Of a stretch of DNA of 64,000 nucleotides, positions 29,159-63,641 are shown piece by piece. Source of the stretch: Gemmatimonadota bacterium (lineage in GTDB: Bacteria; Gemmatimonadota; Gemmatimonadetes; JACCXV01; JAHWKZ01); assembly GCA_035513155.1 (NCBI GenBank), contig DATKCO010000003.1:543-64542 (forward strand), given 5' to 3'. A program made the position numbers and the translations under genes. The notes beneath the pieces are model-generated. The model saw only the letters and a program-made list of their open reading frames with translations, had not been told where the DNA came from and did not search any database. How positions within the stretch are numbered: position 1 is the stretch's first letter; each line of letters opens with the position of its first letter.

Positions 29159-29162
29159 GTCG

Positions 29163-30338: not shown

Positions 30339-30398
30339 GAGAAAGGTAGTACACTCCAGGTGCAGCCAATCTCCGCAACTCGAGACGAGGAGTGGCTC

Positions 30399-30749: not shown

Positions 30750-30773
30750 GAGACTCTCTCGAGGAGAATACCC

Positions 30774-31943: not shown

Positions 31944-31955
31944 GGGAGAGCTAGC

Positions 31956-33215: not shown

Positions 33216-33225
33216 GCGCCGGGGT

Positions 33226-36777: not shown

Positions 36778-36837
36778 GCGGGCCCGGCTCAGGGGGAGCG
36801 GCCGAGTGAGATGGCGAGGGCCGCGAGCACCCTCCCC

Positions 36838-38154: not shown

Positions 38155-39386
38155 GCCCGGACGATCGGGCGCGGCTTCCCGCCTTCCGCGGTCCCGATCC
38201 GCGGGACCGCCTCGATCTCGAATCGGACGTCCGGGCCGAGCATGGCGGCGGCGGCCTCGCGCAGCTCCTGCCCCGAAGGCGGCCCCGCCCCCTCCAGGGG
38301 AACGTGGCGCAGGACGATCCGGTCCGGCGCCTCCTGGACGAGCTGGTACTGCCGGATCCAGGGCGCGGCGCCCAGAAGAGGCGCCAGGATCCGGTACGGA
38401 TGGATCGCGCGGCCGTCGGGCAGTTCGAAGTAGTCGATCGTCCGGCCCTCGATCCGGGCGAGCGTGGCTCCGGGATGGCCACACGGGCAGCCGTACGGCC
38501 CCGGGGTCACCGAGTCGGTCAGCCGGTAGCGGATGAAGGGGGCCGTGGAGAAGCTGAGCGCGGTGACGACGATCTCGCCGGTGTCCGGGGCGGTCGGGAC
38601 GGCGCCCGCCACCACCTCGACGATCAGGTCCGGCCGGCCGAGATGCTTGAGCCCGGCGGCTCGGCAGTCGGAGGCGATGAGCCCCACCTCGTGGGTACCG
38701 TAAGCGTCGTGGACCGGGGCCCCGAACGCGGACTCGATCCGCGCGCGCGCCATCGGCGTGACGACCTCGCCCGAGAGCCATACGACGCGCGGCCGGAGTC
38801 GCGGCCGGTCGTGGTCCGTCACGAGGCCGGCGACGCGCTCGATGACGCTGGGCAGCCCGCGCAGGAAGGTCGGTGGCGTCCGTCGGAGCTCCGCCAGGAT
38901 CTCAACGGGATCGAGGCAGCAGTCGATCATCCGCTCGTCGACGAGTCCCAGCCCGTTCAGGAGCGCGATCCCGTCGGGCCGGCCCTCGCGGTGGACGAAC
39001 ACCGAAGCCACGCGATCCCCCCGACGCAGCCCCGCCGCGAGGAGGTCGCGCAGCCAGCTCCGCGCCCAGAGCGCCTGCTCCGCCCGGCTCCGATGGACGA
39101 CGAGCGGCTCGCCCGAGTACCCCGAGGTCATCGTAGAGACCAGGGTCGAGGGGCGGGTGCCGCGGGCGACGATCTCCTCGATCGGGCGGTCGAGGAGATC
39201 CGCCTTCTCCATCACCGGGAGACGGGCGAGGTCGGCGATCCCGCGGACGTCTGCCGGGCGCAAGCCGGCCCGATCGAAGCGCTCGCGGTGGAACGGGACC
39301 CGCTCGTAGGCGTGAGCCACCAGCCCCCGGAGACGCCGGTCCCGGGTCTCCGCGTCGTTCCGCTCCGTTCCGGATGCGCGCGTCAT
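38151..39386 (-). CDS. Phenylacetate-CoA-ligase-family (PaaK / F390-synthetase-like) adenylate-forming enzyme
   Basis: 'LRGLVAHAYERVPFHRERFDRAGLRPADVRGIADLARLPVMEKADL...TMTSGYSGEPLVV' carries a TSG(S/T)TG-like P-loop variant. 'YGTHEVG'. Confidence 0.8.
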   Translation of the reverse strand: MTRASGTERNDAETRDRRLRGLVAHAYERVPFHRERFDRAGLRPADVRGIADLARLPVMEKADLLDRPIEEIVARGTRPSTLVSTMTSGYSGEPLVVHRSRAEQALWARSWLRDLLAAGLRRGDRVASVFVHREGRPDGIALLNGLGLVDERMIDCCLDPVEILAELRRTPPTFLRGLPSVIERVAGLVTDHDRPRLRPRVVWLSGEVVTPMARARIESAFGAPVHDAYGTHEVGLIASDCRAAGLKHLGRPDLIVEVVAGAVPTAPDTGEIVVTALSFSTAPFIRYRLTDSVTPGPYGCPCGHPGATLARIEGRTIDYFELPDGRAIHPYRILAPLLGAAPWIRQYQLVQEAPDRIVLRHVPLEGAGPPSGQELREAAAAMLGPDVRFEIEAVPRIGTAEGGKPRPIVRA

Positions 39387-39480
39387 GGCCGAAGGGTGTC
39401 CCGACGCGATGCCGGGGTGCAAGGGAGTCGCGGCTGGTCCTTCCTGTGCGGATCGGCCGGGCCGCATTTACCTTGTCCCC

Positions 39481-40014
39481 ATGCGGACGATGAGTCCCGC
39501 CGAGCCCGTTCAGCTGCGCCTCACGGTCAACGGGGAGCCGCGGGTCGTCTCGGCCCCGCTCCACCACACCCTGCTCGAAGTCCTGCGCGAGGAGCTCGGC
39601 CTGACCGGGACCAAGCACGGCTGCGAGCTGGGGGAGTGCGGGACGTGCACGGTCCTGGTCGACGGCGCGCCGGTCCTCTCCTGCCTCGCGGTCCCCGCCG
39701 CCCTTGAGGGACGGGAGGTCACGACGGTCGAGGGGATGGAGACCGCCGCCGGCCTTCACCCCCTCCAGCAGGCGTTCGTCGAGCTGGGGGCGGCCCAGTG
39801 CGGGTACTGCACGCCCGGGTTCCTGCTCGCCGCGATGGCGCTCCTCGACGAGTCGCCGCGGCCCGCGCGGGACGAGATCGTCGACGCGCTGGGCGGCAAC
39901 CTCTGCCGCTGCACCGGCTACCTGAAGATCTACGAAGCCGTCGAGCTCGCTGCCGCGCGGATGGAGGGCGAGGACGCCGAGCCCGCGGAGGAGACCCTGT
40001 ATGGCGAGGCGTGA
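39481..40014 (+). CDS. [2Fe-2S] small subunit, system 2 (HcrC-like)
   Basis: 'GTKHGCELGECGTCTV' and 'QCGYCTPGFLL...GNLCRCTGY'. Internal ATG at 39481. Confidence 0.9.
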   Translation: MRTMSPAEPVQLRLTVNGEPRVVSAPLHHTLLEVLREELGLTGTKHGCELGECGTCTVLVDGAPVLSCLAVPAALEGREVTTVEGMETAAGLHPLQQAFVELGAAQCGYCTPGFLLAAMALLDESPRPARDEIVDALGGNLCRCTGYLKIYEAVELAAARMEGEDAEPAEETLYGEA

Positions 40015-42475
40015 CGGAGGATCCGGCCTCAGGGTCGTCGGCCGCGCGCTGCCGAAGGTGGACGCGGTCGCGAAGGTGACCGGTCGAACGCGGTTCGCCG
40101 ACGACCTGTTCCTGCCCCGGATGCTCCACTGCCGCATGCTCCGCTCGACCGTGCCGCATGCCGAGATCCGCGCGGTCGACACGAGCGCGGCGGAGGCGAT
40201 GGAGGGGGTCGTCGCGGTCCTGACCGGGAAGGACCTGCCGACTCCGTACGGGATCCTTCCCGTCAGCCAGGACGAGCACGCGCTGTGCCTCGACAAGGTG
40301 CGGTTCATCGGCGACCCGGTCGCCGCGGTGGCCGCGATCGACGAGGAGTCGGCCGAGGCGGCGTGCCGCGCGATCGCGGTGGAGTACGCGGAGCTCGACG
40401 CGGTCGCGTCGATCGAGGACGCGCTCGACGGCGAGGACCCCGGAATCCATCTCTACGGCGACGGCCACAACGTCCACAAGGCGGTGGCGCTCGAGTTCGG
40501 CGATGTGGAGGCCGCGCTGGGCGAGGCCGACGTCGTGCTCGAGGACACGTTCTTCTACGAAGGGAATACCCACCTCCCGATGGAGCAGCACGCCGCGCTG
40601 GCGGACTGGCGCCCCGACGGGAAGCTGACCCTCTGGTCCTCGACCCAGACTCCGCACTATGTCCACCGCGCGCTGGCGCGCGTGCTGGAGACGCCGGCGA
40701 GCCGGATCCGTGTCATCGCCACGCCCAACGGGGGCGGCTTCGGCGGCAAGAGCGACCCGTTCAACCACGAGATCGTGGTGGCCGAGCTGTCCCGGCGGAC
40801 CGGCCGGCCGGTGAAGATCTGCTTGACCCGCGAGGAGGTCTTCTACTGCCACCGCGGCCGCCACCCGGTGCTGATGTGGGTGAAGACCGGGTTCCGGAAC
40901 GATGGCGCGATCACCGGCATGCACTTCCGCTCGTTCCTCGACGGCGGGGCCTATGGCAGCTACGGGGTCGCGTCGACCTACTACACGGGCGCGCTCCAGA
41001 CCGTGACGTATCCGGTGCCCGCGTACCGGTTCGAGGGTCTGCGCGCGTTCACGAACAAGCCCCCGTGCGGGCCCAAGCGCGGCCACGGCACCCCGCAGCC
41101 CCGCTTCGCTCTCGAGGTGCAGATCGACAAGGCGGCCCATCGGCTGGGCCTCGATCCCGCCCGCATGCGACTCGACCACCTGGTCCCGCCGGATTCGGTG
41201 ACGGCGAACTGGCTCCGGATCGGGTCGATGGGCCTCGGCGCGTGCATCGAGAAGGTCGTCGCGGCGTCCGGCTGGGAGGAGAAGCACGGCCGCCTGCCCG
41301 AGGGCCGGGGCGTGGGCCTGGCGTGCGGGAGCTACATCTCGGGCGCCGGCCTGCCGATCTACTGGAACGCGATGCCCCATTCGGGCGTCCAGCTCAAGCT
41401 GGACCGCGGCGGCGGCGTGACCGTCTTCTGCGGCTCGACGGACATCGGACAGGGATCGGACTCGATCCTGGCCTATGTCGTCGCCGAGGTTCTGGGCGTC
41501 GACCCGTTCGCGATCGAGGTCGTCACCGCCGACACGAGCCTGACCCCGGTCGACCTGGGATCGTACTCGAGCCGGGTCACGCTGATGAGCGGCAACGCCG
41601 CGCTCCAGGCCGCCGAGCGGGCGCGCGAGCTGCTCGTCCAGGCGCTGGCCGAGAAGTGGGAGATCCCCGGATCCCGCATCGCCCTGGCCGAGGGGCGCGC
41701 CTTCGACGTCGAAGACCCGGACCGGTCGATCCCGTTCGCCGACGCGGTCGTCGCGGCCGAGGCGAAGTTCGGGACGATCGGCACGGTGGGCTCCTACACG
41801 CCGCCCGCGTCGCCCGGGCGATACAAGGGCGCGGGGGTGGGACCCAGCCCGGCGTACTCGTACGCGGCCGCGGTGGCCGAGGTGACGGTCGACCCCGAGA
41901 CCGGCGAGACCCGGGTCGACGAGGTGTGGATCGCCCATGACATCGGGCGGGCGATCAATCCCGTCGTCGCGATCGGCCAGGTCGAGGGATCGGTGTACAT
42001 GGGCCTGGGAGAGGCGCTGATGGAGGAGATGACCTACCGCGGGAACCGCAACGTCGTCCACCGCCATCCGTCGCTGCTCGAGTACAAGAGCCCGACGACC
42101 CACGAGATGTGCCGGATCCACACGTTCCTGATCGAGGATCCGGATCCCAACGGGCCGTTCGGCGCCAAGGAGGTGGGGCAGGGACCGCTGCTCCCGATCC
42201 CGCCGGCGATCGTCAACGCGATCCACGACGCCGTCGGCGTCCGAGTGGACGAGGTGCCGGTGACGCCGCAGAAGGTGCTCGCCGCGCTCAAGCGGAAGGC
42301 GAAGGGGGAGGAGGCCCGCGAGGGACCGGCCGGCATCCCGGAATTCCCGTGGCCGGAGCCCGTGCGGGTGCCGCCGCCCTCGTCCGGCGGGGACGGCCGC
42401 GCGATCGACGACCCGCGCCACATCGGGGCCGGCGGCGTGCGGGACGGGGGCGTGACGGGAGGGGTGCCGGCATGA
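40001..42475 (+). CDS. Molybdopterin-binding large subunit, system 2 (4-hydroxybenzoyl-CoA-reductase-alpha/aldehyde-oxidoreductase-like)
   Basis: 'GRALPKVDAVAKVTGRTRFADD' and 'GGGFGGKSDP'. The C-terminal active-site loop reads 'GAKEVGQGPLLP', with Gln where the family normally has Glu. It has a low-complexity tail of about 50 aa. Confidence 0.85.
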   Translation: MARRDGGSGLRVVGRALPKVDAVAKVTGRTRFADDLFLPRMLHCRMLRSTVPHAEIRAVDTSAAEAMEGVVAVLTGKDLPTPYGILPVSQDEHALCLDKVRFIGDPVAAVAAIDEESAEAACRAIAVEYAELDAVASIEDALDGEDPGIHLYGDGHNVHKAVALEFGDVEAALGEADVVLEDTFFYEGNTHLPMEQHAALADWRPDGKLTLWSSTQTPHYVHRALARVLETPASRIRVIATPNGGGFGGKSDPFNHEIVVAELSRRTGRPVKICLTREEVFYCHRGRHPVLMWVKTGFRNDGAITGMHFRSFLDGGAYGSYGVASTYYTGALQTVTYPVPAYRFEGLRAFTNKPPCGPKRGHGTPQPRFALEVQIDKAAHRLGLDPARMRLDHLVPPDSVTANWLRIGSMGLGACIEKVVAASGWEEKHGRLPEGRGVGLACGSYISGAGLPIYWNAMPHSGVQLKLDRGGGVTVFCGSTDIGQGSDSILAYVVAEVLGVDPFAIEVVTADTSLTPVDLGSYSSRVTLMSGNAALQAAERARELLVQALAEKWEIPGSRIALAEGRAFDVEDPDRSIPFADAVVAAEAKFGTIGTVGSYTPPASPGRYKGAGVGPSPAYSYAAAVAEVTVDPETGETRVDEVWIAHDIGRAINPVVAIGQVEGSVYMGLGEALMEEMTYRGNRNVVHRHPSLLEYKSPTTHEMCRIHTFLIEDPDPNGPFGAKEVGQGPLLPIPPAIVNAIHDAVGVRVDEVPVTPQKVLAALKRKAKGEEAREGPAGIPEFPWPEPVRVPPPSSGGDGRAIDDPRHIGAGGVRDGGVTGGVPA

Positions 42476-43461
42476 TGCGGCTGCCCCGCTTCGAGTACCG
42501 CGTCCCGCGCTCGATCGACGAGGCGGTGGCGGCGAAGGGGGACGCGCCGCCGGACGCCGCGTACGTCGCGGGCGGCACCGATCTCTATCCGAACATGAAG
42601 CGCCGCCATCAGGAGCCCGGCACCCTGATCGCCCTCCACGCGGTCGAGGAGCTGAGGCGGATCGAGCCGCGGGAAGGAGGCGGCCTCGCGATCGGCGCGA
42701 CCGCGACCCTGACCGAGGTCCGGCGGCACCCCCGGGTGCGGGCGGACCATCCGGCGCTCGCCGAGGCGTGCCGGCTCATCTCCACCCCGATCCTCCAGAA
42801 CATGGGGACGCTGGGCGGGAACCTCCTGCTGGACACGCGCTGCAACTACTACGACCAGAACTACGACTGGCGGAAGTCGATCGACTTCTGCATGAAGAAG
42901 GACGGGACGATCTGCTGGGTGGCACCCGCCTCGCCGCGCTGCTGGGCGGTGCAGTCTGCGGACAGCGTGCCGCTCCTGGTGGCCCTGGGGGCCGAGGTCG
43001 ATCTCGCGGGACCGGGTGGGGAGCGGCGGGTGCCGGTCAGCGCGCTCTATCGCGACGACGGGATCCTCTATCTCGCCAAGCAGCGGGACGAGCTCCTGAC
43101 CCGCGTGCTCCTGCCGGCGCCCGACGGCTGGCGCGCGGTCTACCGCAAGGTGCGCCGCCGTGGCGCGTTCGACTTCCCGGTCCTCGGCGTCGGCGCGTGG
43201 GCGCGGTTCGAGGACGGCGGAACGGTGGCCGAGGCGCGGGTCGTCATGGGCGGGGTCGGCTCCGCCCCCGAGGCCGTCGAGGGGGCGGCCGCCGCGCTGG
43301 TCGGCGGGACGCTCGACGACGCGTCGATCGAGGCCGCCGCGAGCGCCGCGTGGAAGGCCGGCCGTCCGCTCGACAACACCGATTTCTCGATCTCCTGGCG
43401 CAAGGAGATGATCCGCCCCACCGTCGCCCGCGCGCTGAGAGACCTGCGGGACGGCCCATGA
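42472..43461 (+). CDS. FAD-binding medium subunit, system 2, with a four-Cys insertion (HcrB-like extra [4Fe-4S] loop)
   Basis: 'YVAGGTDLYPNMK' (FAD). The insertion 'CNYYDQNYDWRKSIDFCMKKDGTICWVAPASPRC' has spacing C-x15-C-x7-C-x8-C at residues 124/140/148/157. ATG overlaps the upstream stop. Confidence 0.8.
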   Translation: MMRLPRFEYRVPRSIDEAVAAKGDAPPDAAYVAGGTDLYPNMKRRHQEPGTLIALHAVEELRRIEPREGGGLAIGATATLTEVRRHPRVRADHPALAEACRLISTPILQNMGTLGGNLLLDTRCNYYDQNYDWRKSIDFCMKKDGTICWVAPASPRCWAVQSADSVPLLVALGAEVDLAGPGGERRVPVSALYRDDGILYLAKQRDELLTRVLLPAPDGWRAVYRKVRRRGAFDFPVLGVGAWARFEDGGTVAEARVVMGGVGSAPEAVEGAAAALVGGTLDDASIEAAASAAWKAGRPLDNTDFSISWRKEMIRPTVARALRDLRDGP

Positions 43462-44048
43462 GGGTCGGAGGGATCGTCCTCGCCGCCGGTCGCTCGTCCC
43501 GCATGGGGAGCGCCAAGGCGCTGCTCGAGATCGAGGGCCGGACGTTCCTCGAGCGCGCCCTCGGCATCCTTGCCGGGGGAGGCTGCGAGCCGCTCGTCGT
43601 CGTGCTGCCCGACGGCGCCTCCGCCGGTCGGGCGGGAGAGCTGGCCAGGGCCGGCGGGGCCGAGGCCGTGGAGAACCCGCTCGCCGGAGCCGAGCAGATC
43701 GACAGCCTCCGGGTCGGTCTCGCCGCCCTTCCGGACGACCTCGACGCGGCGGTCGTCCTGCCCGTCGACCATCCCCTGGCGCGCGCGGAGACGGTCCGGG
43801 CGCTCGTCGGGGCCTTCGGGGCGAGCGGAGCCCCGATCGTCCGACCCGTCTACCGCGACCGGCCCGGCCACCCCGTCCTGTTCGCCCGGGCCGTCTGGGG
43901 AGAGCTCGCGGACCCGACCCTCGACCGGGGCGCGCGCGACGTCGTCCACCGGCACGCCGGGGAGCTCCTCGACGTGCCGCTCGACGATCGCGGGGTCCAC
44001 GTCGACGTCGACACGCCGGACGACTATCGCCGGGAGGTCAAGCCGTGA
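43458..44048 (+). CDS. mocA: Molybdenum cofactor cytidylyltransferase-like nucleotidyltransferase
   Basis: 'GIVLAAGRSSRMGSAKALLEIEGRTFLERAL' is the MobA/MocA-type N-terminal motif. ATGA overlap. It follows a Mo-hydroxylase operon. Confidence 0.75.
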   Translation: MRVGGIVLAAGRSSRMGSAKALLEIEGRTFLERALGILAGGGCEPLVVVLPDGASAGRAGELARAGGAEAVENPLAGAEQIDSLRVGLAALPDDLDAAVVLPVDHPLARAETVRALVGAFGASGAPIVRPVYRDRPGHPVLFARAVWGELADPTLDRGARDVVHRHAGELLDVPLDDRGVHVDVDTPDDYRREVKP

Positions 44049-44863
44049 CGCGCCTCGACGTAGCGCGCGCCCTGGCGCTCGTCCAGGCCGCGGTCGCGGA
44101 GGGGCGGGACGCCGCGACGGCCGTGGTCGTGGCCGCCCCCGATCCGGCCCTGGTGGGACGCCGGGTCGTGTGGGACGGCGAGCGGCATCACGGAGGGCTG
44201 GGGGAGCGGTCGGCGGACGCGCGAATCCGGCGGCTCCTCAAGACGGCGACCGGGTCCGCGGGGTGCCACACGATCGCGGAAGGGCTCGAGCTCTACGTGG
44301 AGTGGTGGTCGCCCGCTTCGGAGCTCGTGATCGTGGGCGCCGGACACATCGCGCGCCCGCTCGCCGCCATCGGGCGACTCCTCGACTTCCGGGTCCTCGT
44401 GCTCGACGATCGAGCGGAGCTGACGACTCCCGAGCGCTTTCCGGGGGCCGACGTGCGGATCGTCGACTTCGCCGACCCGTTCTCGGGCCTCGAGATCGGG
44501 CCCCGGACGAGCCTCGTCCTGGTGACACGCGGCCACCGCTACGACTACGACTGCCTGCGCGCGCTCGTCCGGAGCGGGGCCCTCCCCGCCTACCTGGGTG
44601 TGATCGGGAGCCGCCGCCGGGTCCGCGCCGCCTTCGAGCAGCTGGCGGAGGAGGGGGTCGACGCCGCCTGGCTGGCGCGGATCCGCGCCCCCATCGGGCT
44701 CGACATCGGTTCCGAGACGCCGGCCGAGATCGCGGTGGCGATCGCCGCGGAGATCGTTCACGCCGTCCGCGGCGGGACGGGGCGGCCTCTCTCGGAGGCG
44801 GCCGACGTGCTGCGGCACGTGCGCGCGCTGAGCCGGTCGGCGACCGCCGGAGAGGGATCGTGA
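44045..44863 (+). CDS. xdhC: XdhC/CoxI-family Mo-hydroxylase maturation protein (with Rossmann domain)
   Basis: 'LVIVGAGHIARPLAAIGRLLDFRVLVLDDR...LVTRGHRYDYDCL...IGSRRR...PIGLDIGSETPAEIAVAIAAEI'. Confidence 0.8.
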   Translation: MTRLDVARALALVQAAVAEGRDAATAVVVAAPDPALVGRRVVWDGERHHGGLGERSADARIRRLLKTATGSAGCHTIAEGLELYVEWWSPASELVIVGAGHIARPLAAIGRLLDFRVLVLDDRAELTTPERFPGADVRIVDFADPFSGLEIGPRTSLVLVTRGHRYDYDCLRALVRSGALPAYLGVIGSRRRVRAAFEQLAEEGVDAAWLARIRAPIGLDIGSETPAEIAVAIAAEIVHAVRGGTGRPLSEAADVLRHVRALSRSATAGEGS

Positions 44864-52915: not shown

Positions 52916-53191
52916 ATGGAGACGCGGAAGTGCGTCGTTCGCGGGCGTGTCCAGGGAGTCGGGTTCCGCTGGTTCGTGACGCGGAACGCCAAGGACCTGG
53001 GTGTCCGCGGCACGGTGCGAAACCGCACGGACGGAGCCGTCGAGGCGGTGCTCCAGGCCGACGGGCCGGAGCCCGTGGAGAGCCTGATCGCGCGCATTCG
53101 CAGCGGCCCGCCCGCTTCCCGCGTGGAGGCCGTCGACTGCGCGCCGGTGGACGACGGCGCGCGCTTCGAGCGGTTCGAGGTCACCGGATGA
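52916..53191 (+). CDS. acyP: Acylphosphatase
   Basis: 'VRGRVQGVGFRWFVTRNAKDLGVRGTVRNRTDGAVEAV'. Confidence 0.85.
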   Translation: METRKCVVRGRVQGVGFRWFVTRNAKDLGVRGTVRNRTDGAVEAVLQADGPEPVESLIARIRSGPPASRVEAVDCAPVDDGARFERFEVTG

Positions 53192-53784: not shown

Positions 53785-54326
53785 GCGAGCTCGAACGAAG
53801 TTCGCTGGAACAGCGGCTGCGCGCGTCGATCCGCGACATCCCCGATTTTCCCAAGCCGGGGATCCTCTTCAAGGACATCACGCCCGCGCTTCTCGATCCG
53901 GCCCTGTTTCGTGAGACCGTGGGCGCGCTCGCCGACTGGACGCGGGAGAAGGCCGCCGCGAAGGTCATCGGTGTCGACGCCCGCGGGTTCCTGTTCGCCG
54001 GCGCGGTCGCCGACCGCCTGGGGATCGGCCTGGTGCCGGTCCGCAAGCCCGGGAAGCTCCCGTTCGAGACGGTGAGCGAGTCGTACGACCTGGAGTACGG
54101 GGTCAACACCCTCGAGCTTCACACCGACGCGATCGGCAGGGGCGAGAGGATCGTGGTCGTCGACGACCTGCTCGCCACGGGCGGGACCGTGGAGGCGGCC
54201 GTGCGGCTGGTGGAAGCCCTGGGCGGATCGATCGTCGGCCTGGCGTTCGTCGTCGAGCTCGGCTTCCTGAACGGTCGCGCTCGGCTCGACGGCTACGACA
54301 CGATGAGCCTTGTCGCGTTCGACTGA
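53781..54326 (+). CDS. apt: Adenine phosphoribosyltransferase
   Basis: 'IRDIPDFPKPGILFKDITP...RIVVVDDLLATGGT'. Confidence 0.9.
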   Translation: MSELERSSLEQRLRASIRDIPDFPKPGILFKDITPALLDPALFRETVGALADWTREKAAAKVIGVDARGFLFAGAVADRLGIGLVPVRKPGKLPFETVSESYDLEYGVNTLELHTDAIGRGERIVVVDDLLATGGTVEAAVRLVEALGGSIVGLAFVVELGFLNGRARLDGYDTMSLVAFD

Positions 54327-55335
54327 CGCAGGCTCCTCCCACGCCGGAAGGAGCGGACGAGCTCCGGTGCCCATCGGTTCGCTCGAGGAGAACGGGGGAG
54401 GGAGGGGGGACTTCGTCCCGGGCCCGGAGTGGCTGTCACGCGCGCTGCTGCTCGATCCCACCGTGCCCGATCCGGGCGTGGCCTGCTGGGCGGACGCCCG
54501 CTCGCTGGGGCTCGTTCGGCTGCCGATCCTCCTCGGGTGGCGCCGAAGCGGGGGCGCGGTCGTCGTGGGGACGAGCGAGCGCGTCGCCGAGGCCGGGCTC
54601 CTGACCGCCACGCTCGAGCTCGCCGAAAGGACCGCGGAGTGGACCCCCGGCCGGTGGGGCGATGCCTTCCGTTCCTTCTGGTCGAGCGCCGACGCCTCGC
54701 TCCGCGAGGCCCTGGCGACCCGGTTGCCGCTTCCCGCGACCGAGCCCTGGTCGCTGGTGAATTGGTCCGAGGCCGTCTGGGGGACCTACGCCGAGTCGGG
54801 ATCGACCGCCGTGGCGCTGGTCGCGCGGGAGCTGGGACCCGACGTGCTCTCGTCGCTGGAATGGCTGGGGCGCCGCACCGGATGGGTGGCCGGGTACTCC
54901 GCCGAGCCCCTGGACGAGGACGGTCGGCGGATCCGCTGCTTCCGCGTGGCCGGCAGCCTCGGCCCGGAGGCCGCGCGACCGTTGCCGGGAGAGGCCGGCC
55001 GCTCCCCGACGGAAGGATCGCCGGACCCCCTCGATACGGTGGAGCGCCTGGCGCTCGACGCGGGGGCGAGCGTTTCCTGGTCGCGCCGGGACTGGGTCCG
55101 GTTCCACGGCACCGGCGGCACGATCCGGGTCTTCCCGCGAGAGGACGCCGTCTGGCTGCAGCTCGTGGGAGCCGACGAGGGAACGCTGGCGGGGTTGCGC
55201 TTCCGCCATGGTGTGCCGTTGGAGCCGCCCGGGTCTCCCGACGCGCCTCCCGGCGCGCATCTCGCCCTCCGTTCGAACGCCGAGGTGACCGCGAAGGTCG
55301 AGGCCGTGATTCGGGAGTGGCTGCAGGGGGGTTAG
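54310..55335 (+). CDS. Hypothetical protein (no recognisable family; start uncertain)
   Basis: A long ORF in the gap between apt and mobA. Its composition is less Arg/Pro-skewed than the antisense alternative (54436..55524). Confidence 0.35.
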   Translation: MSRSTDAGSSHAGRSGRAPVPIGSLEENGGGRGDFVPGPEWLSRALLLDPTVPDPGVACWADARSLGLVRLPILLGWRRSGGAVVVGTSERVAEAGLLTATLELAERTAEWTPGRWGDAFRSFWSSADASLREALATRLPLPATEPWSLVNWSEAVWGTYAESGSTAVALVARELGPDVLSSLEWLGRRTGWVAGYSAEPLDEDGRRIRCFRVAGSLGPEAARPLPGEAGRSPTEGSPDPLDTVERLALDAGASVSWSRRDWVRFHGTGGTIRVFPREDAVWLQLVGADEGTLAGLRFRHGVPLEPPGSPDAPPGAHLALRSNAEVTAKVEAVIREWLQGG

Positions 55336-57051: not shown

Positions 57052-57963
57052 TTGCCAGCTAGATTCCCACCCGTGCCCGCCAGCCCACGCATCCTGATCC
57101 ATCTCGACCACAACCCGCACCCGCGGGTCTTCGACCAGATCATGTCGCTGGACGGCGGCGCGGATCAGATCCTCGCCCACGGCGACGTCGATCCCCAGGA
57201 CGTGCCCGTGCTCGTGTCGGGAGCTCTCTACTCGAGGCCGCGGGACGAGCTCCACCGGACCGCGCTCCTGATCACGGGCACCAACGACCACGTCATCGAC
57301 GAGATGGTGCGGCAGGCGCGGCGCGCCTTCTTCGGCCCGTACCGGATCTCGCTCATGTCGGAGTGCAAGGGCGGCAGCACGGTCGCCGGCGCGACCGTGG
57401 CGCGGGTGCGTCAGCTGGTGAACCTGACGAAGGCGCGCGTCGTCGTGATCGGCGGCGGCCCAGCGGGCGGCCGGGTCGCCGGCATCCTCGCCTCCGAGGG
57501 CGCACGCGTGCGCCTCTCCGTCTTCGACGAGGAGGAGGCCGACGAGCGGCGCTCGTTCGTCGAGGAGATGTTCGAGGAGGAGATCGAGGCCGTGGTCTGG
57601 AAGACCGGCGAGCCGCTGGAGGCGCTCGTCGACGGCGCGCGGGTCGTGATCACGGCGGGCCCGCCCGGGCTCCTCCTGCTGCCCCGCCGGGTCTGGTCGG
57701 CGATCGACGGTTTGGAGCTCCTCGTCGACATCAGCGGCGCCGAGCCCGCGGGGATCGAGGGGCTCTCCGGCGAGGAGGACGGCGATCCCCTCCCCAACGG
57801 ACACCACAACGTCCTCGCCGTCGGCGGGCTCGCCGTCTCCCGCTACAAGATCCGCGTCCACCGCGCGGCGGTGGCGGGCCTGTTCCATCGGGAGGCGGTC
57901 GTCCTCGGCCCCGTCGAGATCGCCAGGCTGGCGAGGGAGATCATCACCCCGTCCCTCGATTGA
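57052..57963 (+). CDS. NAD(P)-dependent methylene-tetrahydromethanopterin/methylene-H4F dehydrogenase (MtdA/MtdB)-family homologue
   Basis: It aligns by eye along its whole length to MtdA as I recall it: 'VFDQIMSLDGGADQILAHGDVDPQDV', 'FFGPYRISLMSECKGGSTVAGATVA', 'VVVIGGGPAGGRVAGILASEGARV', 'LAVGGLAVSRYKIRVHRAAVAGLF'. The start is either TTG at 57052 or GTG at 57073. Confidence 0.7.
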   Translation: MPARFPPVPASPRILIHLDHNPHPRVFDQIMSLDGGADQILAHGDVDPQDVPVLVSGALYSRPRDELHRTALLITGTNDHVIDEMVRQARRAFFGPYRISLMSECKGGSTVAGATVARVRQLVNLTKARVVVIGGGPAGGRVAGILASEGARVRLSVFDEEEADERRSFVEEMFEEEIEAVVWKTGEPLEALVDGARVVITAGPPGLLLLPRRVWSAIDGLELLVDISGAEPAGIEGLSGEEDGDPLPNGHHNVLAVGGLAVSRYKIRVHRAAVAGLFHREAVVLGPVEIARLAREIITPSLD

Positions 57964-58188: not shown

Positions 58189-59628
58189 CTATACGATCCG
58201 GAAGTAGTCGACCAGCACGCATCGCCGCCGGCGCACGAACGTCCGCGCCGACGTCGGGCCCTCTCCGGTGGGGGTCGAGATCGTCATCGCGGTCGGTCCT
58301 TCCCCGCCGAAGCCGAGCCCGGCCAGGCTGGGGCCGTTCTTGACGAAAATCGAGCAGTTCATCGCCACGGCCATGCGGTGGAGGGCGTCCAGGTCCTTCG
58401 AGTGCATGCAGGCCGTGTGCTTGAAGTCGTGCTCGAGCTCGACCGCCCAGTCGATCGCGGTGCGCACGTCGGGACAGCGGATGAGCGGCACGACCGGCGT
58501 CAGGAGCTCGAGGACCGCGAACGGGTGGTCCTTCGTCGTCTCGGCGACGAGAAGCCGGGTGGTTGCGGGAACGTCCTTGCCGATCAACCCCGCGAGCACG
58601 GCGGGGTCCTTCCCCACGAACTCCTTGTCCATTCGGGGCTCGGGGCCGGGATAGCCGGTCAGGATCGCGCGCGCCAGCGACTCGGCCTCGTCGGCGGAGA
58701 GGAGGACCGCGTCGTTCCGCTCGAGCTCGGCCAGGAGATCGTCGGCGATCGCGGCCTCGGCGAGGATCTCCTTCTCGCACGTGCAGACGACGTTGTTGTC
58801 GAACCCGGCGCCGGCCACGATGTCGCGCGCGGCCCGGGCGAGGTCCGCCGTCCGGTCGACGACGACCGGAGGGTTTCCCGGACCCGCCGCGATCACGCGC
58901 TTGTCGGACGCCTGCGCCGCCCGCACGACCCCGCCACCGCCGGTCACGACCAGCAGGTCGATCCCGGGGTGGTGGAACATCGCCTGCGCGGCCTCGATCG
59001 ACGGCTCGGCCACTGCGGTCAGGAGAGTCTCCGGTCCCCCCACCTCCGCGGACGCAGCGTTCATCAGGTGGATCGTGCGGTTGGTGACCGCGCGGGCCAG
59101 GGGGTGGGCGCCGAAGACGACCCCGTTGCCGGACGCGATCATCGAGATCCCGTTGTTGATGATCGTGGCGGCCGGATTGGTCGACGGGGTGACCGCCCCG
59201 ATGACCCCCCAGGGCGCCAGCTCGGTCAGCGTGAGGCCGTGGTCGCCGGAGAGGATCTCCGGCTGAAGGTCCTCGGTGCCGGGAGTCCGGTCGACGACGA
59301 GGCGGTTCTTGAGCGTCTTGCTGGGAACGTTGCCGAGGCGGGTCTCGGCGACTGCTTCCTCGGCCAGCGCGGCGGCTTCTTCTCCGAGGCGCTTCCGCTG
59401 GTTGGCGATGATCCGGTCGCGCAGCTCGAGCGTCCGGATCTCCCGCTGCGCGGCCCGGGCGGCGGCGACGGCCTGGTCGACGGTCTCGAAGATCCCCAGC
59501 GAGCCCGATCGTGGGGGCTCTCGCTCTCCGGCGCCAGCCGTCGGGGTGGGCGCGGCGCGGCGCCCACGGTCCAGCTCGGCCGTGATGCGGTCGACGATGG
59601 TGCGGATCTCGCGTTCGGTCAGCGACAC
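58189..59628 (-). CDS. CoA-acylating aldehyde dehydrogenase (EutE/PduP-type) with N-terminal encapsulation-peptide-like helix
   Basis: Catalytic region 'FDNNVVCTCEKEIL'. The C-terminus 'TISTPTGEGPTSARTFVRRRRCVLVDYFRIV' is typical of BMC AldDH. The N-terminal amphipathic 'EREIRTIVDRITAELDR' is followed by a Pro/Ala/Gly linker. Confidence 0.9.
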   Translation of the reverse strand: MSLTEREIRTIVDRITAELDRGRRAAPTPTAGAGEREPPRSGSLGIFETVDQAVAAARAAQREIRTLELRDRIIANQRKRLGEEAAALAEEAVAETRLGNVPSKTLKNRLVVDRTPGTEDLQPEILSGDHGLTLTELAPWGVIGAVTPSTNPAATIINNGISMIASGNGVVFGAHPLARAVTNRTIHLMNAASAEVGGPETLLTAVAEPSIEAAQAMFHHPGIDLLVVTGGGGVVRAAQASDKRVIAAGPGNPPVVVDRTADLARAARDIVAGAGFDNNVVCTCEKEILAEAAIADDLLAELERNDAVLLSADEAESLARAILTGYPGPEPRMDKEFVGKDPAVLAGLIGKDVPATTRLLVAETTKDHPFAVLELLTPVVPLIRCPDVRTAIDWAVELEHDFKHTACMHSKDLDALHRMAVAMNCSIFVKNGPSLAGLGFGGEGPTAMTISTPTGEGPTSARTFVRRRRCVLVDYFRIV

Positions 59629-59688: not shown

Positions 59689-59964
59689 CTACTCGGCGAC
59701 GATCGGGAAGTGTGCGTCCAGGTCCGAGTGCGGACGCGGGATCACGTGCACGGAGACGACCTCGCCCACCTTCTTCGCGGCGGCCGCGCCGGCGTCCACG
59801 GCGGCCTGGCAGGCAGCGACGTCGCCGCGGACCAGGGCCGTGACATAGCCAGCGCCGATCTTCTCGTACCCGACGAGCGTGACGCGCGCGGCCTTGACCA
59901 TCGCGTCGGCGGCCTCGATGAGCGCCACCAGCCCGCGCGTTTCGATCATCCCCAGTGCTTCCAT
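59689..59964 (-). CDS. BMC-H shell protein (single PF00936 domain)
   Basis: '[59 protein letters not shown]...VHVIPRPH'. Strong RBS GGGAGGAG. Confidence 0.95.
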
Positions 59965-60060
59965 TCGGGTTCTCCTCCCGGCCGAGGGGTCGTGCGGATG
60001 AGCGTCTCGCGCGCCGGCGAACGGCGCGTGTTCCTGGAATCAGGTCCTCGTGAAATCGAC

Positions 60061-60099
60061 CGGCCGGGGTCCTCCTGGTCGGTGCGGAGGAGCCGGCCG
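60061..60099 (-). other. Strong stem-loop inside the 167-nt gap between pta and the BMC-H gene
   Basis: 'cggccggggtcctcc-tggtcggtgc-ggaggagccggccg' forms a GC-rich stem of about 14 bp with one mismatch. No T-tract follows. Confidence 0.4.
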
Positions 60100-60131
60100 T
60101 TGAGCGAGTTTAAGCACGATGTTCCCGCTAT

Positions 60132-61145
60132 TCAAGTCGGTCCGCCCGATCGGGTCGCCTGGACGCAGCCGATGAGCGCCACGTTGACGAGGTCCTCGGC
60201 CGAGGCGCCGCGCGAGACGTCGTGCATCGGGGCGGCGAGTCCCTGGAGGAGGGGTCCCAGCGCGGTCATGCCCCCGAACCGCTGGGCGAGCTTGTAGCCG
60301 ATGTTGCCGCTGTCGAGATCGGGGAACACGAGCACGTTGGCCCGGCCCGCGAGCGGGCTGTCGGGCGCCTTGGCGGCGGCGACCTCGGGGACGATGGCGG
60401 CGTCGAGCTGGAGCTCGCCGTCGACGACGAGGTCGCCCCGCCGCGCGCGGACTTTCCGGGTCGCCTCGACGACTCGCTCCACCCGCGCGTGTCGGGCACT
60501 CCCCCGGGTCGAGAAGGAGAGCATGGCGATCCGCGGCTCCTCGCCGGTCAGGGCGCGGTGGGTCTCGGCGCTCGTGATCGCGATGTCGGCGAGCTGGTCG
60601 GCCGACGGAACGGGGACGACCCCGCAGTCGGCGAAGGTGTAGGCGGTCCCGTCTCCGGCCACCATGAGGAAGGCCGACGACACGGTGGCGATCCCGGGCG
60701 CGGTGCCGACGACGAGGATCGCCGCGCGGACGGTCTCCGCGGTGGTCGAGAGGTTCCCCGCCACGCAGACGTCGGCCTCCCCCCGCGCGACCAGGGACGC
60801 GCCAAAGCCCGGCCCGGTCTCGAGGAGGGCGCGGGCGTCGCGGGCGGAGGCCTCCCTTCCCCGCGCCCGCCAGCGCCCGGCGAGCTCGTCGGCGGAGGCG
60901 TCGAGCCGGGGCGAGCCGGAGGGATGGACGAGCTCGATTCCCTCGAGGCCGACGCCGGCGCGGTCGGCGGCCTCGCGGAGCGCAATCGGCCCGCCGAGGA
61001 GGACGACCCGAGCGAACCGTTCGTCGGTGAGGCGGCGGGCGGCGAGCGCGGCCCGCGGGTCCGCGCCATCGGCGAGCACGACCCGGCGCGGGCCGGCGCG
61101 CCGCGCCCGGTCCCGCAGCTCGGCGAGCAGATCGCGGCGGGTCAT
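60132..61145 (-). CDS. pta: Phosphate acetyl/acyl-transferase (PTA_PTB domain only)
   Basis: '[17 protein letters not shown]', '[20 protein letters not shown]' and '[23 protein letters not shown]'. ATGA overlap with the upstream small gene. Confidence 0.9.
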
Positions 61146-61456
61146 GGGCCGAGGCGCTCGAGCAGCCGGCGGGCGATCTCGCGGACCTGCGCGGGATCGG
61201 CGCCCGGCACCCGCGCGCGGACGCGCTCGACGATCCGCTCGGCGTCGTCGGGATCGCAGGTGGCGGACCGGCGCCCGGCGGGGGGCGTCGCGGCCGAGCG
61301 CTCGACGGTCGCCTCGACCAGCTCGACCGCGCGCCGGGACGCCTCGTCCCGCGCCAGCGGGGTGACGATCGCGTCCAGCGGCACGGCGAGCCGGGTTTGG
61401 CCCGCGCGTGCGGCCGCGCGGACGTCCTCGGCGGAGACGACCGGCCGGCTCACCAC
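61142..61456 (-). CDS. Small BMC-locus protein (104 aa) of unknown function downstream of ParA
   Basis: GTG-GTG start 7 nt after the parA stop. '[33 protein letters not shown]' recalls the short 'TP(L/S)ARD' N-terminal motif seen in some Eut/Pdu-associated proteins. A central low-complexity stretch is followed by a C-terminal amphipathic '[13 protein letters not shown]'. Confidence 0.5.
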
Positions 61457-61463
61457 CGCCCCC

Positions 61464-62261
61464 TCACGGCTTCGGCACTCCGTCGCGGGCGGCCCGCCAC
61501 CGGCCCACGATCTCCGCCGCGGCGGAGTAGTAGGCGGCGGCCCCCGCCGACTCGGGATCGACCTCGTACAGGAGACGGCCATCCCGCGCCGCCTCGGCCA
61601 GCGCGACGTTGGTCGGGATCGGGGCCTCGATCAGCAGGCTCCCCCACTCCTCGATCATGCGCGCCAGGCACTCCCGCGCCACCCGCGTCCGCCGGTCGTA
61701 GAGCGTCGCCAGGTAGCCGAGCACGACAAGCCGCGGGTTCAGGTGTCGGCGGACCCGATCGACCAGATCGATCGTCCGGGGGACGCTGGCCAGGGCGAAG
61801 GGATGGGTCTGGACCGGGATCACGACCCCGTCCGCGAGCCGGAACGCGTTCACGGTGTAGAGGGAGAGGGCCGGCGGCACGTCGAGCACGGCGAGCCGGA
61901 ACGGCAGGTCGTCCGACCATGCCTCCCACAACAGGCTCTCGCGGTCGGGCATGGACGCGAGCTCGGACTCCAGGGTCCCCAGGCTCTCGTGGGCGGGCAG
62001 GATCGAGAGGTTCTCGTAGGCGGTCGGCTGGACGGCCGGCGCGATCCCCTTCGAGGGGTCGATCAGCACATCGGTCAGCGTGGTCCGGAGGGCGGCCGGA
62101 TCGAGGCCGAGGTGCCGGGTGGCGGAAGCCTGGGGGTCGAGGTCGACGAGCAGGGTCGGGACGCCGATCTCGGCGAACGCGCCGGCCACGTGGACGGCCG
62201 AGGTCGTCTTCCCCACGCCGCCCTTGGCGTTGGCGAAGACGATCGAGAACGGCCGCGGCAC
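61464..62261 (-). CDS. ParA/MinD-family P-loop ATPase encoded inside the BMC operon (McdA-like by position)
   Basis: Deviant Walker A with signature Lys 'FANAKGGVGKTT'. 'LLVDLDPQASAT'. Walker B 'LAVLDVPPAL'. GTG start 4 nt after the shell gene stop. Confidence 0.9.
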   Translation of the reverse strand: MPRPFSIVFANAKGGVGKTTSAVHVAGAFAEIGVPTLLVDLDPQASATRHLGLDPAALRTTLTDVLIDPSKGIAPAVQPTAYENLSILPAHESLGTLESELASMPDRESLLWEAWSDDLPFRLAVLDVPPALSLYTVNAFRLADGVVIPVQTHPFALASVPRTIDLVDRVRRHLNPRLVVLGYLATLYDRRTRVARECLARMIEEWGSLLIEAPIPTNVALAEAARDGRLLYEVDPESAGAAAYYSAAAEIVGRWRAARDGVPKP

Positions 62262-62264
62262 CGC

Positions 62265-62852
62265 TCACCCGGCCGGGTAGTAGCGGCTCTCGACCTTCTC
62301 GATCACGCCCTCGTCGAGGAGCTCCTTGACGAGGACGATGAGCCGGCGCCACTCCGTGCCGAGCGCCTCGCCGAGCTCGGGGAGCGTGATCCCCTTCGCG
62401 CCGGCGCTCCGGACGGCCCCCAGGCTACGGGCGCGCAGATCGCCGTTGGCCGGCGGCGGCTCCCGCCGGCCGCGGCCTCCCGCGCCACGGGAGGCGTCCC
62501 CGCGGGCGGCTCCCTGCCCTCCGATCCGGCCGCCGAGCGTGTGCCGGACGGGATAGGTGCCGATCCGGCGGTCGCCCGGCAGGACCCCGACCAGGAGGTC
62601 GGTGGCGTCGTGGGGACGGGGGATCACGTGGACGGCCACCAGCTCGCCGACCCGGGCCGCCGCCACCGCGCCGGCGTCGGTGGCCGCCTTGACCGCGGCC
62701 ACGTCCCCCCGCACCAGGATCGTGACGAGTCCCCCCTCGGCGTACTCCCGCTTCTCGATCTCGACGGCGGCCGCCTTCACCATCGCGTCGGCGGCCTCGG
62801 TGGCGCCCACGAAGCCGCGGGTCTCGACCATTCCCAGCGCGCGCCCGGCCAC
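62265..62852 (-). CDS. BMC-H domain shell protein fused to an Arg/Gly-rich linker and a C-terminal winged-helix-like domain (EutK-like architecture)
   Basis: N-terminus '[56 protein letters not shown]...VHVIPRPH'. Linker '[28 protein letters not shown]'. C-terminus '[38 protein letters not shown]'. Confidence 0.85.
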
Positions 62853-62854
62853 CC

Positions 62855-63508
62855 TCAGTACCTCACCGGCTCACGGGCGACCTCGAGGACCGCCTTCTCG
62901 AACGCCTCGCACGCCGCCCGGCAATCCGCCTCGCTCCCGGTCACGAGGGCGCCGGCCATGTTCGTCGGCGTCGGCGCCGGCATCCACTCCGCCAGGTCGA
63001 CGGCCGCCTGCTTGAGCGCATGGTCGAGCGCCCAGGTCGCCTCGAGGGGGGCGGCCTTCAGGTAGGCGAGCGACTCCCCTGGCTCGATCCCGGCCCGCGC
63101 CGAGAGGTGGGTCCCGGTCCGGGCGACGAGGTGCGCGAAGTACCGCTGGAGCCCCCCGGCGCCGGCGGCCCGGTAGCTCACGCGCGACTCGAGATGAGAG
63201 ATCGCAGCATCAAGTCCCGCAGTGACTTCCGCGATCTTGTCGCTCGCCAGAATCGCGAGGGTCTCGCCGCTGGTCGGCCCCGACGGATGGGCGGCCCCGC
63301 CGTAGAACGAGCGGGCGGAGACGACCTCGACCCCCGCCTTCTTCGTCGCCTCGTCGATGGCGACGTAGGTGCAGTCGTCCTGGTCGACGGTGAGGAAGCC
63401 GACCGCGACCTGGCCCTCGTCGAGCCCCAGCGCCTCGGCCAGGGCGCCGGCCACGTTGGGGATCGTGCGGACCGCGAGCACGCGCGGCGTCAGCGTCGTG
63501 GTGGGCAT
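62855..63508 (-). CDS. BMC-T tandem-domain shell protein (EutL-like, permuted)
   Basis: It is colinear with EutL as recalled: '[25 protein letters not shown]...[17 protein letters not shown]...[46 protein letters not shown]...[24 protein letters not shown]'. Confidence 0.9.
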
Positions 63509-63641
63509 CCGGTCTCGGGAACGGGAGGAGAATCGTCGGGATCGCGGTCAGCGTATTCTACGGACCGGCCCCGGACGCGGTCAAGCGCTCTATATTCCCG
63601 GACGTCCGAGCTCCCCCCTTTCCCGCTTCCCGGAGACCGCG

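Follow-up and report, generated by a model that had tools for sequence, protein, structure and literature searches.

An orphan Soj-type ParA and a stand-alone homologue of the EutQ N-terminal region within a conserved EUT-derived metabolosome operon of Gemmatimonadota

Carboxysomes are positioned by McdAB systems of the alpha and beta types, in which a ParA-family ATPase with the signature lysine (McdA) is encoded in or beside the operon of its bacterial microcompartment (BMC), next to the gene of a small adaptor (McdB). McdB proteins are largely disordered (41-95%) and of low complexity with a charged N-terminus, and they possess an invariant C-terminal Trp or, in the McdB-like proteins of other BMCs, an aromatic residue among the last four. 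'McdAB-like' genes have been described in the vicinity of other BMC operons (Axen 2014, PMC4207490; MacCready 2021, PMC8359340 section 2.9; PMC13052382). Reviews up to 2025-2026 report such genes near non-carboxysome BMC operons, with no characterised case (PMC13052382, PMC12866334). Proteins of catabolic microcompartments are also relevant here. PduK of Salmonella, a hexameric shell protein (BMC-H) with an outward-facing C-terminal extension, is needed for the non-polar distribution of Pdu BMCs (PMC9132943). Residues 1-99 of Salmonella EutQ are a demonstrated shell-to-cargo linker, in which the helices H1/H2 bind the shell and H3/H4 bind the encapsulation peptides of EutC and EutE, EutQ itself being encapsulated (PMC12487888). 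EutQ also affects how many compartments a cell contains (PMC4827028). The BMC catalogue of Sutter 2021 types Gemmatimonadetes loci as MUF2 and FRAG8, and ParA is unmentioned for these loci in the catalogue and its supplements.

The window analysed here is a stretch of 64,000 nt from a Gemmatimonadota genome. The region of interest within it represents the core of a compact metabolosome operon of EUT origin, and its cargo is aldehyde-oxidising, not that of a carboxysome. Seven genes follow each other in the order eutL-like, eutK-like, parA, eutQ(N)-like, pta (eutD), eutM-like and aldehyde dehydrogenase (eutE-like).

63555..63584, minus strand: promoter-like site TTGACC-18-TAGAAT, about 47 nt ahead of the first shell gene; one found against 0.1 expected in shuffles
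62855..63508, minus strand: EutL-like trimeric shell protein (BMC-T), 217 aa, with two BMC domains; NCBIfam EutL NF011934 3.5e-76, 255 bits (cutoff 198)
62265..62852, minus strand: EutK-like hexameric shell protein, 195 aa; BMC domain, basic R/G-rich disordered linker and putative HTH-like C-terminal domain of about 60 aa ending SRYYPAG
61464..62261, minus strand: orphan Soj-type ParA ATPase, 265 aa; deviant Walker A with signature lysine, NAKGGVGKTT; Pfam AAA_31 3e-36, CbiA 1e-18
61142..61456, minus strand: stand-alone homologue of the EutQ N-terminal region, 104 aa; predicted alpha/beta N domain 1-50, disordered linker 52-66, two-helix C-terminal hairpin 69-102
60132..61145, minus strand: phosphotransacetylase (Pta/EutD type), 337 aa; PTA_PTB 3e-104, NF007233 357 bits (cutoff 310)
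59689..59964, minus strand: EutM-like BMC-H shell protein, 91 aa; NF012018 EutM 150 bits (cutoff 133)
58189..59628, minus strand: acylating aldehyde dehydrogenase (EutE/PduP type), 479 aa; NF011927 611 bits

The first five genes are tightly packed, with gaps of 2, 3, 7 and -4 nt, and downstream of pta lie a BMC-H gene and then the acylating aldehyde dehydrogenase gene. ParA begins 3 nt past the stop of the upstream BMC-domain gene and is separated from the next ORF by 7 nt; the TGA of this small ORF overlaps the ATG of pta (ATGA, a 4-nt overlap). A previous sequence-only reading of this DNA had regarded both genes as integral to the operon, and this spacing bears it out. The promoter-like site is likely to be the operon start. 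No gene was recognised upstream of it on the same strand, and in relatives the operon is preceded by unrelated genes such as leuS. The aldehyde dehydrogenase starts with an amphipathic helix and then a Pro/Gly-rich linker, reading MSLTEREIRTIVDRITAELDRG, and the N-terminus of its Caldithrix orthologue is MSLNSQEIANIVDAVLDRLDKK. Judged by its sequence, this N-terminus looks like a candidate encapsulation peptide.

The ATPase belongs to the ParA/MinD family of deviant Walker A ATPases. It has the KGGxxK[ST] motif with the signature lysine, within NAKGGVGKTT as the sequence-only reading had stated (KGGVGKT), and the Walker A' and Walker B aspartates are present. DLDPQ and LDVPP are invariant in the alignment of its clade, where all ATPase motifs are intact. 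Its best match in the PDB was Soj of T. thermophilus (1WCV), aligned over the full length at 6.5e-40, whereas the solved McdA (6NOO) matched the N-terminal 165 residues only, at 9e-11. It is thus far closer to chromosomal Soj than to the characterised McdA. Members of the clade are at least 67% identical to each other and at most 45% identical to chromosomal ParAs accompanied by ParB, which is a sharp gap; the ParA of this operon shares 42-45% identity with the chromosomal ParAs. The Caldithrix ParA joined the Gemmatimonadota BMC clade in 199 of 200 neighbour-joining bootstraps, in a small tree that contains no chromosomal ParAs of Gemmatimonadota or Calditrichota. The protein is a Soj-derived orphan ParA, which forms a discrete clade and is fixed in the operon across Gemmatimonadota.

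Compared with the chromosomal Soj/ParA-ParB-parS system, the ParA clade shares the fold, all ATPase motifs and the equivalent of Soj R189. It differs in the absence of ParB and parS, in its location within a BMC operon, in a basic C-terminal tail that is added relative to Soj, and at two arginine positions. The R215 equivalent is replaced by Thr, Ile or Val throughout the clade, and at the position of R218 all 11 aligned members have Ala. R218 of B. subtilis Soj is one of two arginines reported to be necessary for non-specific DNA binding (PMC3778016). Nucleoid binding by this ParA is therefore not assured.

The 104-aa ORF has a GTG start 7 nt past the ParA stop, with GAGGGGG in front; in the NCBI annotation of the contig it begins one codon later and has 103 aa (P0001). 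Its sequence indicates a real gene, because 170 homologues were found at E<=1e-3 and because pN is below pS in two conserved blocks, while pN is similar to pS in the linker between them. In the AlphaFold model, helices were predicted at residues 9-17, 33-42, 69-82 and 88-102, the N domain had a pLDDT of about 90, and values below 50 were confined to residues 52-66. The low-complexity centre noticed in the sequence-only reading is indeed variable, and it corresponds to this disordered segment. The C-terminal amphipathic helix proposed at the same time was right as to a helical end, but the model has two helices (69-82, 88-102) in place of one. The missing C-terminal Trp was also correctly noted: the protein ends in ...LLERLGP, with no other aromatic residue there. 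The last 10 residues lack an aromatic residue in 31 of 33 family members; the two others (P0107, P0117) have a Trp at the third-last position, an exception within the family.

The 104-aa protein is, by sequence, a stand-alone homologue of EutQ residues 1-99. Positions 4-84 of NCBIfam NF012001 matched it at E=2e-7 with 30.8 bits, against a cutoff of 193 bits. BLASTP aligned it with residues 2-97 of E. coli EutQ at 27% identity (E=5e-6), and a profile of the 104-aa family retrieved EutQ-cupin proteins (PF06249), which were matched at their N termini. The relation was revealed only by NCBIfam, since a Pfam search with the protein gave no match, PF06249 cupin included. A PDB sequence search with the family returned designed proteins only (E>=0.003), and a Foldseek search with the model yielded nothing at E<0.4; by these searches, the EutQ-N module has no solved structure in the PDB. 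The protein is not a full EutQ, as the C-terminal cupin/acetate kinase domain is missing and the score lies below the NF012001 cutoff. The module occurs on its own as well as in fusions with the cupin domain and with RpiB.

The homology covers the whole region, and the domain plan of EutQ 1-99 (H1/H2, flexible linker, H3/H4) is matched by a folded N-terminal part, a disordered linker and two C-terminal helices in the model. The gene neighbourhood is also similar to that of eutQ: an NTPase gene is followed by eutQ and then by eutD, eutM and eutE. The differences are that the model has short strands besides helices in its N-terminal part and that the preceding NTPase is ParA, not EutP. By analogy with Salmonella EutQ 1-99, the 104-aa protein is most likely a luminal shell-cargo linker. 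In such a role, the alpha/beta domain at its N-terminus would attach to the shell and the hairpin at its C-terminus would hold the candidate encapsulation peptide with which the aldehyde dehydrogenase begins; the flexible linker would connect these two parts.

ParA and the small ORF occur together widely. ParA stands before the small ORF in 17 of 18 Gemmatimonadota species loci, ParA is followed by the small ORF in all 16 metagenome loci with downstream DNA, and the pair is found in the same slot of one Caldithrix (Calditrichota) locus, with a 4-nt overlap. The co-occurrence on which the sequence-only reading had staked its proposal was thus confirmed. However, it is indistinguishable from conservation of the whole operon. 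The 104-aa family is carried without ParA by at least three other locus types. A stand-alone homologue directly follows the shell gene in five ParA-less loci (L070, L072, L073, L074 and L075), and one Gemmatimonadota locus (L019) has no parA: the shell-gene stop is followed after 7 nt by the GTG of the small gene, both neighbours are kept and the operon is otherwise intact. The small protein and the EutK-like tail of L019 are about as diverged as those of the ParA-bearing locus L021. From these loci we conclude that the function of the 104-aa protein is independent of ParA. In all ParA-less loci examined, the small gene comes directly after a shell gene, so that parA seems to have been inserted between them. 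The 104-aa gene nevertheless sits where a ParA partner typically does, immediately downstream and translationally coupled, across two phyla, which counts against a view of its product as a linker only.

The protein encoded upstream of ParA has a clear BMC-H domain, a flexible linker and a small C-terminal domain that is probably homologous to that of EutK, and its gene follows eutL as in E. coli. With hhalign, the profile of the tail domain matched the C-terminal domain of E. coli EutK with a probability of 76% (E=2.3e-5, 44 columns); searches of Pfam and the PDB gave weak winged-helix matches only. A single-sequence AlphaFold model of the tail was all-helical with no Foldseek match and was discarded, so the relation to EutK rests on hhalign. 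In contrast to EutK and PduK, the linker is long and strongly basic (about 20-60 aa, variable in length and basic in all relatives), and parA lies directly downstream. By analogy, this shell protein ranks at least level with the 104-aa protein as a candidate for contact with ParA. The support consists of adjacency, composition and the analogy to PduK. E. coli has EutK without ParA, which counts against the tail as a ParA contact.

Our reading of the whole locus is that of an EUT-derived operon with a EutQ-N linker of 104 aa and an orphan ParA dedicated to the BMC in an McdA-like role, and we hold it with slightly more confidence than doubt. ParA would most likely spread or segregate the microcompartments through the usual ParA ATP cycle. 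Such a role is plausible, and for BMC-linked ParAs in general it has been suggested before. The contact on the organelle that we favour, by analogy, would be the basic tail of the EutK-like protein together with its HTH-like domain, on the side facing the cytosol; the 104-aa protein is less likely to serve as this contact. The likeness to McdAB lies in a signature-lysine ATPase encoded in the operon of its BMC (here with gaps of 3 and 7 nt and in about 35 loci), in the small gene that comes next and in the expected distribution of the organelle. The cargo here is a metabolosome instead of a carboxysome, and no McdB-type protein is encoded in the operon.

The alternatives differ in what they make of ParA and its neighbour. 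That an ordinary chromosome or plasmid partition ParA has come to lie next to shell genes by chance can be given almost no weight. Its best relative in the structural database is a chromosomal Soj and its closest homologues outside the clade are chromosomal parA-parB pairs, and to this extent the clustering with partition ParAs that would have spoken against the sequence-only reading does exist. The protein nevertheless forms a separate clade, set off by the identity gap, and partition genes are missing. No ParB was found by tblastn in the 64-kb window or in any related BMC locus, no ParB domain among the ORFs scanned, and no parS-like 16-mer in the window at <=3 mismatches; the adjacent parB and centromere sites of a ParABS system are thus absent. 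The short gaps also put the gene inside the operon, and a position kept in about 35 independent loci effectively refutes chance by synteny. ParA might also not be a positioning motor at all, being instead a regulator, an ATPase for shell or cargo assembly or quality control, or a dispensable passenger between the shell and linker genes. Soj-type proteins can act on DNA-bound processes, L019 keeps its operon otherwise intact without parA, the gene looks inserted, no member of the clade retains the R218 equivalent, and in Salmonella the endogenous ParA and MinD have no role in Pdu positioning (PMC12866334). Still, the clade is strongly conserved with intact ATPase motifs across many species and keeps its slot in two phyla, and every characterised orphan ParA whose gene lies beside those of its cargo serves to position it (MacCready & Vecchiarelli review, PMC8262871). 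We consider a non-positioning ParA quite improbable.

The McdB-like adaptor of a different kind suggested by the sequence-only reading would tether the compartment to nucleoid-bound ParA and stimulate its ATPase, possibly besides a linker role. The position and coupling of the small gene, its conservation beside ParA in both phyla, the conserved basic residues R4 and R13 near the N-terminus, the eutP gene for a P-loop NTPase that overlaps eutQ in the same slot of classical eut operons (PMC12487888) and the effect of EutQ on compartments per cell (PMC4827028) are consistent with this idea. However, the corresponding part of EutQ is located inside the compartment, where it connects shell and cargo (PMC12487888), and a ParA in the cytosol is out of reach of a protein in the lumen. 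R4 and R13 are part of the folded N domain and are common to ParA-less homologues, and the family persists without ParA in other locus types and in L019. The McdB hallmarks are also absent: the protein has no C-terminal Trp or Tyr or other aromatic, is mostly folded and lacks a Q-rich or coiled-coil region. The adaptor is thus not borne out as proposed, and a pair of this type appears unlikely. We also regard as doubtful a broader scheme in which the EutK-like shell protein, ParA and the EutQ-N-like linker form an McdB-free partition module for metabolosomes, where ParA would engage the outward-facing tail of the shell hexamer or the shell-cargo linker. In its widest form, the recurrence of a P-loop NTPase gene immediately before eutQ(N), EutP classically and ParA here, would reflect a general coupling between an NTPase and EutQ-N.

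The locus described here bears on the spacing and inheritance of catabolic microcompartments. It is a compact and conserved seven-gene system, in which ParA is flanked by homologues of factors with an experimentally shown role in distribution (PduK) and in shell-cargo coupling (EutQ-N). The different forms of the EutQ-N module can be of use in annotation and in the engineering of cargo loading. The locus makes it a testable question what a ParA grabs on a metabolosome without McdB. If the McdB-free partition module were true, organelle biogenesis would be coupled to segregation.

The BMC operon occupies the minus strand of the window (G+C 70%) and comprises seven genes, running from 63508 to 58189:

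62855-63508, minus strand, EutL-like BMC-T, 217 aa
62265-62852, minus strand, BMC-H with a C-terminal extension of ~100 aa (EutK-like), 195 aa
61464-62261, minus strand, ParA, 265 aa
61142-61456, minus strand, small ORF with GTG start, 104 aa
60132-61145, minus strand, Pta-type phosphotransacetylase, 337 aa
59689-59964, minus strand, EutM-like BMC-H, 91 aa
58189-59628, minus strand, acylating aldehyde dehydrogenase, 479 aa

The intergenic gaps, from the EutL-like gene to the aldehyde dehydrogenase gene, are 2, 3, 7, -4, 167 and 60 nt. When the sequence was re-read, the spacings and motifs given in the sequence-only reading were all correct, including KGGVGKT in ParA and the ATGA overlap with pta. 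A search of 6 kb around the operon gave a single sigma-70-like promoter match, 47 nt upstream of the EutL-like gene, and no terminator-like site. The operon encodes neither an acetate kinase nor a EutQ cupin domain, and no BMC-P gene or signature enzyme was found in the 64 kb. At its N-terminus the aldehyde dehydrogenase has a typical amphipathic helix and, after it, a Pro/Gly-rich linker; the same holds for its Caldithrix orthologue. In some related loci (L001, L005, L006, L010, L011 and L015) an insert of ~2.3 kb separates pta from the second BMC-H gene and in L001 codes for Peptidase_S9_N domain proteins; at this site (59965-60131) the window has a gap of 167 nt only.

Several other genes of the window were annotated. 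An acylphosphatase gene (52916-53191, plus strand; Pfam 8e-25) lies ~5 kb from this operon, which is expected to yield acetyl phosphate. A gene with methylene-tetrahydromethanopterin dehydrogenase N-terminal and NAD-binding domains (57052-57963, plus strand) is convergent with the aldehyde dehydrogenase 3' end, and a 341-aa ORF (54310-55335, plus strand) has strong coding-type GC3 and no Pfam match at E<=0.05. The purine/urate catabolism cluster at 25907-44863 is unrelated to the BMC operon; it encodes two sets of xanthine-dehydrogenase-type molybdoenzyme subunits, a urate oxidase N-terminal domain protein, an amidohydrolase, DUF6986 and XdhC.

The operon order reads eutL, eutK-like, parA, eutQ(N)-like, eutD, eutM, eutE-like. 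The corresponding stretch in E. coli is eutP, eutQ, eutT, eutD, eutM, eutN, eutE, and E. coli eutL is directly upstream of eutK, as it is for the EutK-like gene here. By this comparison ParA occupies the slot of EutP, which is likewise a P-loop NTPase.

The small ORF is a real gene. Its product has 170 homologues of ~100 aa each (E<=1e-3), all labelled Gemmatimonadota where the source is named. An N block (residues 1-48, including an 11-residue motif) and a C block (residues 66-104) are conserved, and the linker between them varies in length and composition; non-synonymous change is far below synonymous change in both blocks and about equal to it in the linker. Pfam gave no match to the protein. 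NCBIfam matched EutQ at its N-terminal part (NF012001, positions 4-84 of 233, E=2e-7) and gave weak matches to the C termini of TIGR02536 and PduM, and BLASTP aligned residues 4-102 to residues 2-97 of E. coli EutQ with 27% identity. In the AlphaFold model, for which the family alignment served as input (mean pLDDT 78), residues 1-50 fold into a small alpha/beta domain (pLDDT ~90), residues 52-66 are disordered, and the C-terminal part forms two helices (69-82 and 88-102). Residues 1-99 of Salmonella EutQ have the same plan, H1/H2, a long flexible linker and H3/H4; there, H1/H2 attach to the shell and H3/H4 to the EutC and EutE encapsulation peptides, and this region is enough for targeting of EutQ, which is encapsulated (PMC12487888). 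By homology, the small protein would be an internal shell-cargo linker. The proposal that it is an McdB-like component is not supported, as McdB-like features are absent and the protein is of the EutQ-N type.

An exhaustive profile search with this family returned 253 cluster representatives at E<=1e-3 in four groups: stand-alone proteins (100-138 aa) that match over the full profile, longer proteins (200-260 aa) with an N-terminal match and a EutQ cupin domain, RpiB fusions matching the N block only, and proteins matched at their C-terminal end. Among the six stand-alone genes examined outside Gemmatimonadota (L070-L075), five have no ParA and lie directly 3' of a shell gene: eutL in a eutABCL locus (L070), a CsoS1D-like BMC-T gene (L072, L073 and L075) or a PduT-like gene (L074). 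The module is thus widespread and not tied to ParA. In L022-L047 (Acidobacteriota and Methylomirabilota; match at ~7001-7130) residues 2-46 are fused to the N-terminus of RpiB sugar-phosphate isomerases; in those Acidobacteriota fusion loci with any tblastn match at E<=1e-4, no shell gene was found within 7 kb on either side. A planctomycetal fusion (L029, 2140-2853) is located among three BMC-P genes. The N block may serve more generally to target proteins to BMCs, including cargo whose genes lie apart from the shell genes.

ParA and the small gene do co-occur, so the refuting condition set in the sequence-only reading, a lack of co-occurrence, does not arise. In species-representative genomes scanned with the small-protein profile, ParA is directly upstream in 17 of 18 Gemmatimonadota loci; in a metagenome scan seeded with motifs specific to the ParA clade, 18 loci were recovered, 16 of them long enough to show what comes after ParA, and in each of the 16 it is the small gene. 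However, this does not single out a partnership, because the whole operon is syntenic. The sole natural parA-less case in the Gemmatimonadota scan retains the small gene (L019; JBHENR010000046.1, 4273-8552): the operon is otherwise the same, both flanking genes are intact, and the EutK-like stop is followed after 7 nt by the GTG of the small gene. The sixth of the stand-alone genes, in a Caldithrix sp. MAG (L071; WJIP01000023.1, 1139-8696; Calditrichota), lies in a locus with the Gemmatimonadota order: a BMC-H, ParA and, overlapping it by 4 nt, the small gene, with pta, two BMC-H genes and AldDH after it. Further on are an FtsA/EutJ-like actin-fold gene, a PduS-like flavoprotein and a PduT-like shell gene, so that this single BMC locus carries two different cytoskeletal/positioning-type NTPases.

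Among solved structures ParA is closest to T. thermophilus Soj (6.5e-40 over the full length), whereas solved McdA matches the N-terminal part only (9e-11). Its database homologues form a tight clade of 67-100% identity, Gemmatimonadota where the source is named, and then fall to <=45%; two of the nearest outside the clade are canonical origin-proximal parA-parB pairs. The Caldithrix ParA joined the clade in 199 of 200 bootstraps of a small neighbour-joining tree, sampled without chromosomal ParAs of Gemmatimonadota and Calditrichota, so that the grouping is only suggestive. In our alignment of the BMC-linked clade with chromosomal relatives, the ATPase motifs of the clade and its equivalent of Soj R189 are invariant. 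R189 and R218 of B. subtilis Soj are reported to be required for its non-specific binding of DNA (PMC3778016). The R218 equivalent is Ala in 11 of 11 clade members (Lys in Caldithrix), and Thr, Ile or Val takes the place of R215; both arginines are retained in the chromosomal relatives. A short basic tail at the C-terminus is a further acquisition of the clade. The Soj numbering agreed with the known K16, D40 and D125 positions.

The best explanation, which we consider somewhat probable, is a composite one: the small protein is the shell-cargo linker, ParA distributes the compartments, and the EutK-like tail is the favoured contact. The role of ParA is suggested by analogy, since every characterised orphan ParA encoded beside its cargo distributes that cargo (PMC8262871); that this ParA has no positioning role is quite unlikely. 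A conventional partition ParA is very improbable, as neither ParB nor a parS-like site occurs in the 64 kb; the window has no second ParA. It is also unlikely that ParA and the small protein form a true adaptor pair: the small gene does sit in the classical partner position, but its EutQ homologue is luminal and its family is independent of ParA.

The case for the EutK-like tail as candidate contact is circumstantial. In this protein the BMC domain is followed by a basic low-complexity linker (~20-60 aa across relatives; R/G-rich in the window, K-rich in Caldithrix) and a conserved 60-aa domain ending SRYYPAG; the Caldithrix BMC-H upstream of ParA has the same C-terminal domain. The profile of this domain matched the E. 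coli EutK C-terminal domain (hhalign probability 76%, E=2.3e-5) and, weakly, winged-helix domains. The tail, which would face the cytosol, is basic and disordered like known ParA-stimulating peptides. It also belongs to a shell-protein class already tied to positioning: Salmonella PduK, a BMC-H whose flexible C-terminal extension is on the outward-facing side, is needed to stop Pdu compartments clustering at the poles (PMC9132943).

The general idea that ParA positions BMCs has been proposed before. A 2014 paper noted the presence of ParA genes in BMC loci (PMC4207490), and one of 2021 'McdAB-like' genes near non-carboxysome operons, with McdB-like proteins there having a C-terminal Tyr (PMC8359340, section 2.9); in the literature since then, the positioning of metabolosomes is still called uncharacterised (PMC13052382, PMC12866334). 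The text and supplements of the 2021 BMC catalogue do not mention ParA for Gemmatimonadetes locus types, and we found no literature description of the EutK-like/ParA/small-gene trio or of stand-alone EutQ-N proteins as a family. The new point is that the proposed 'B' component is a different module, already partly understood. L019 offers a natural parA-less variant that could be compared with its relatives phenotypically or genomically.
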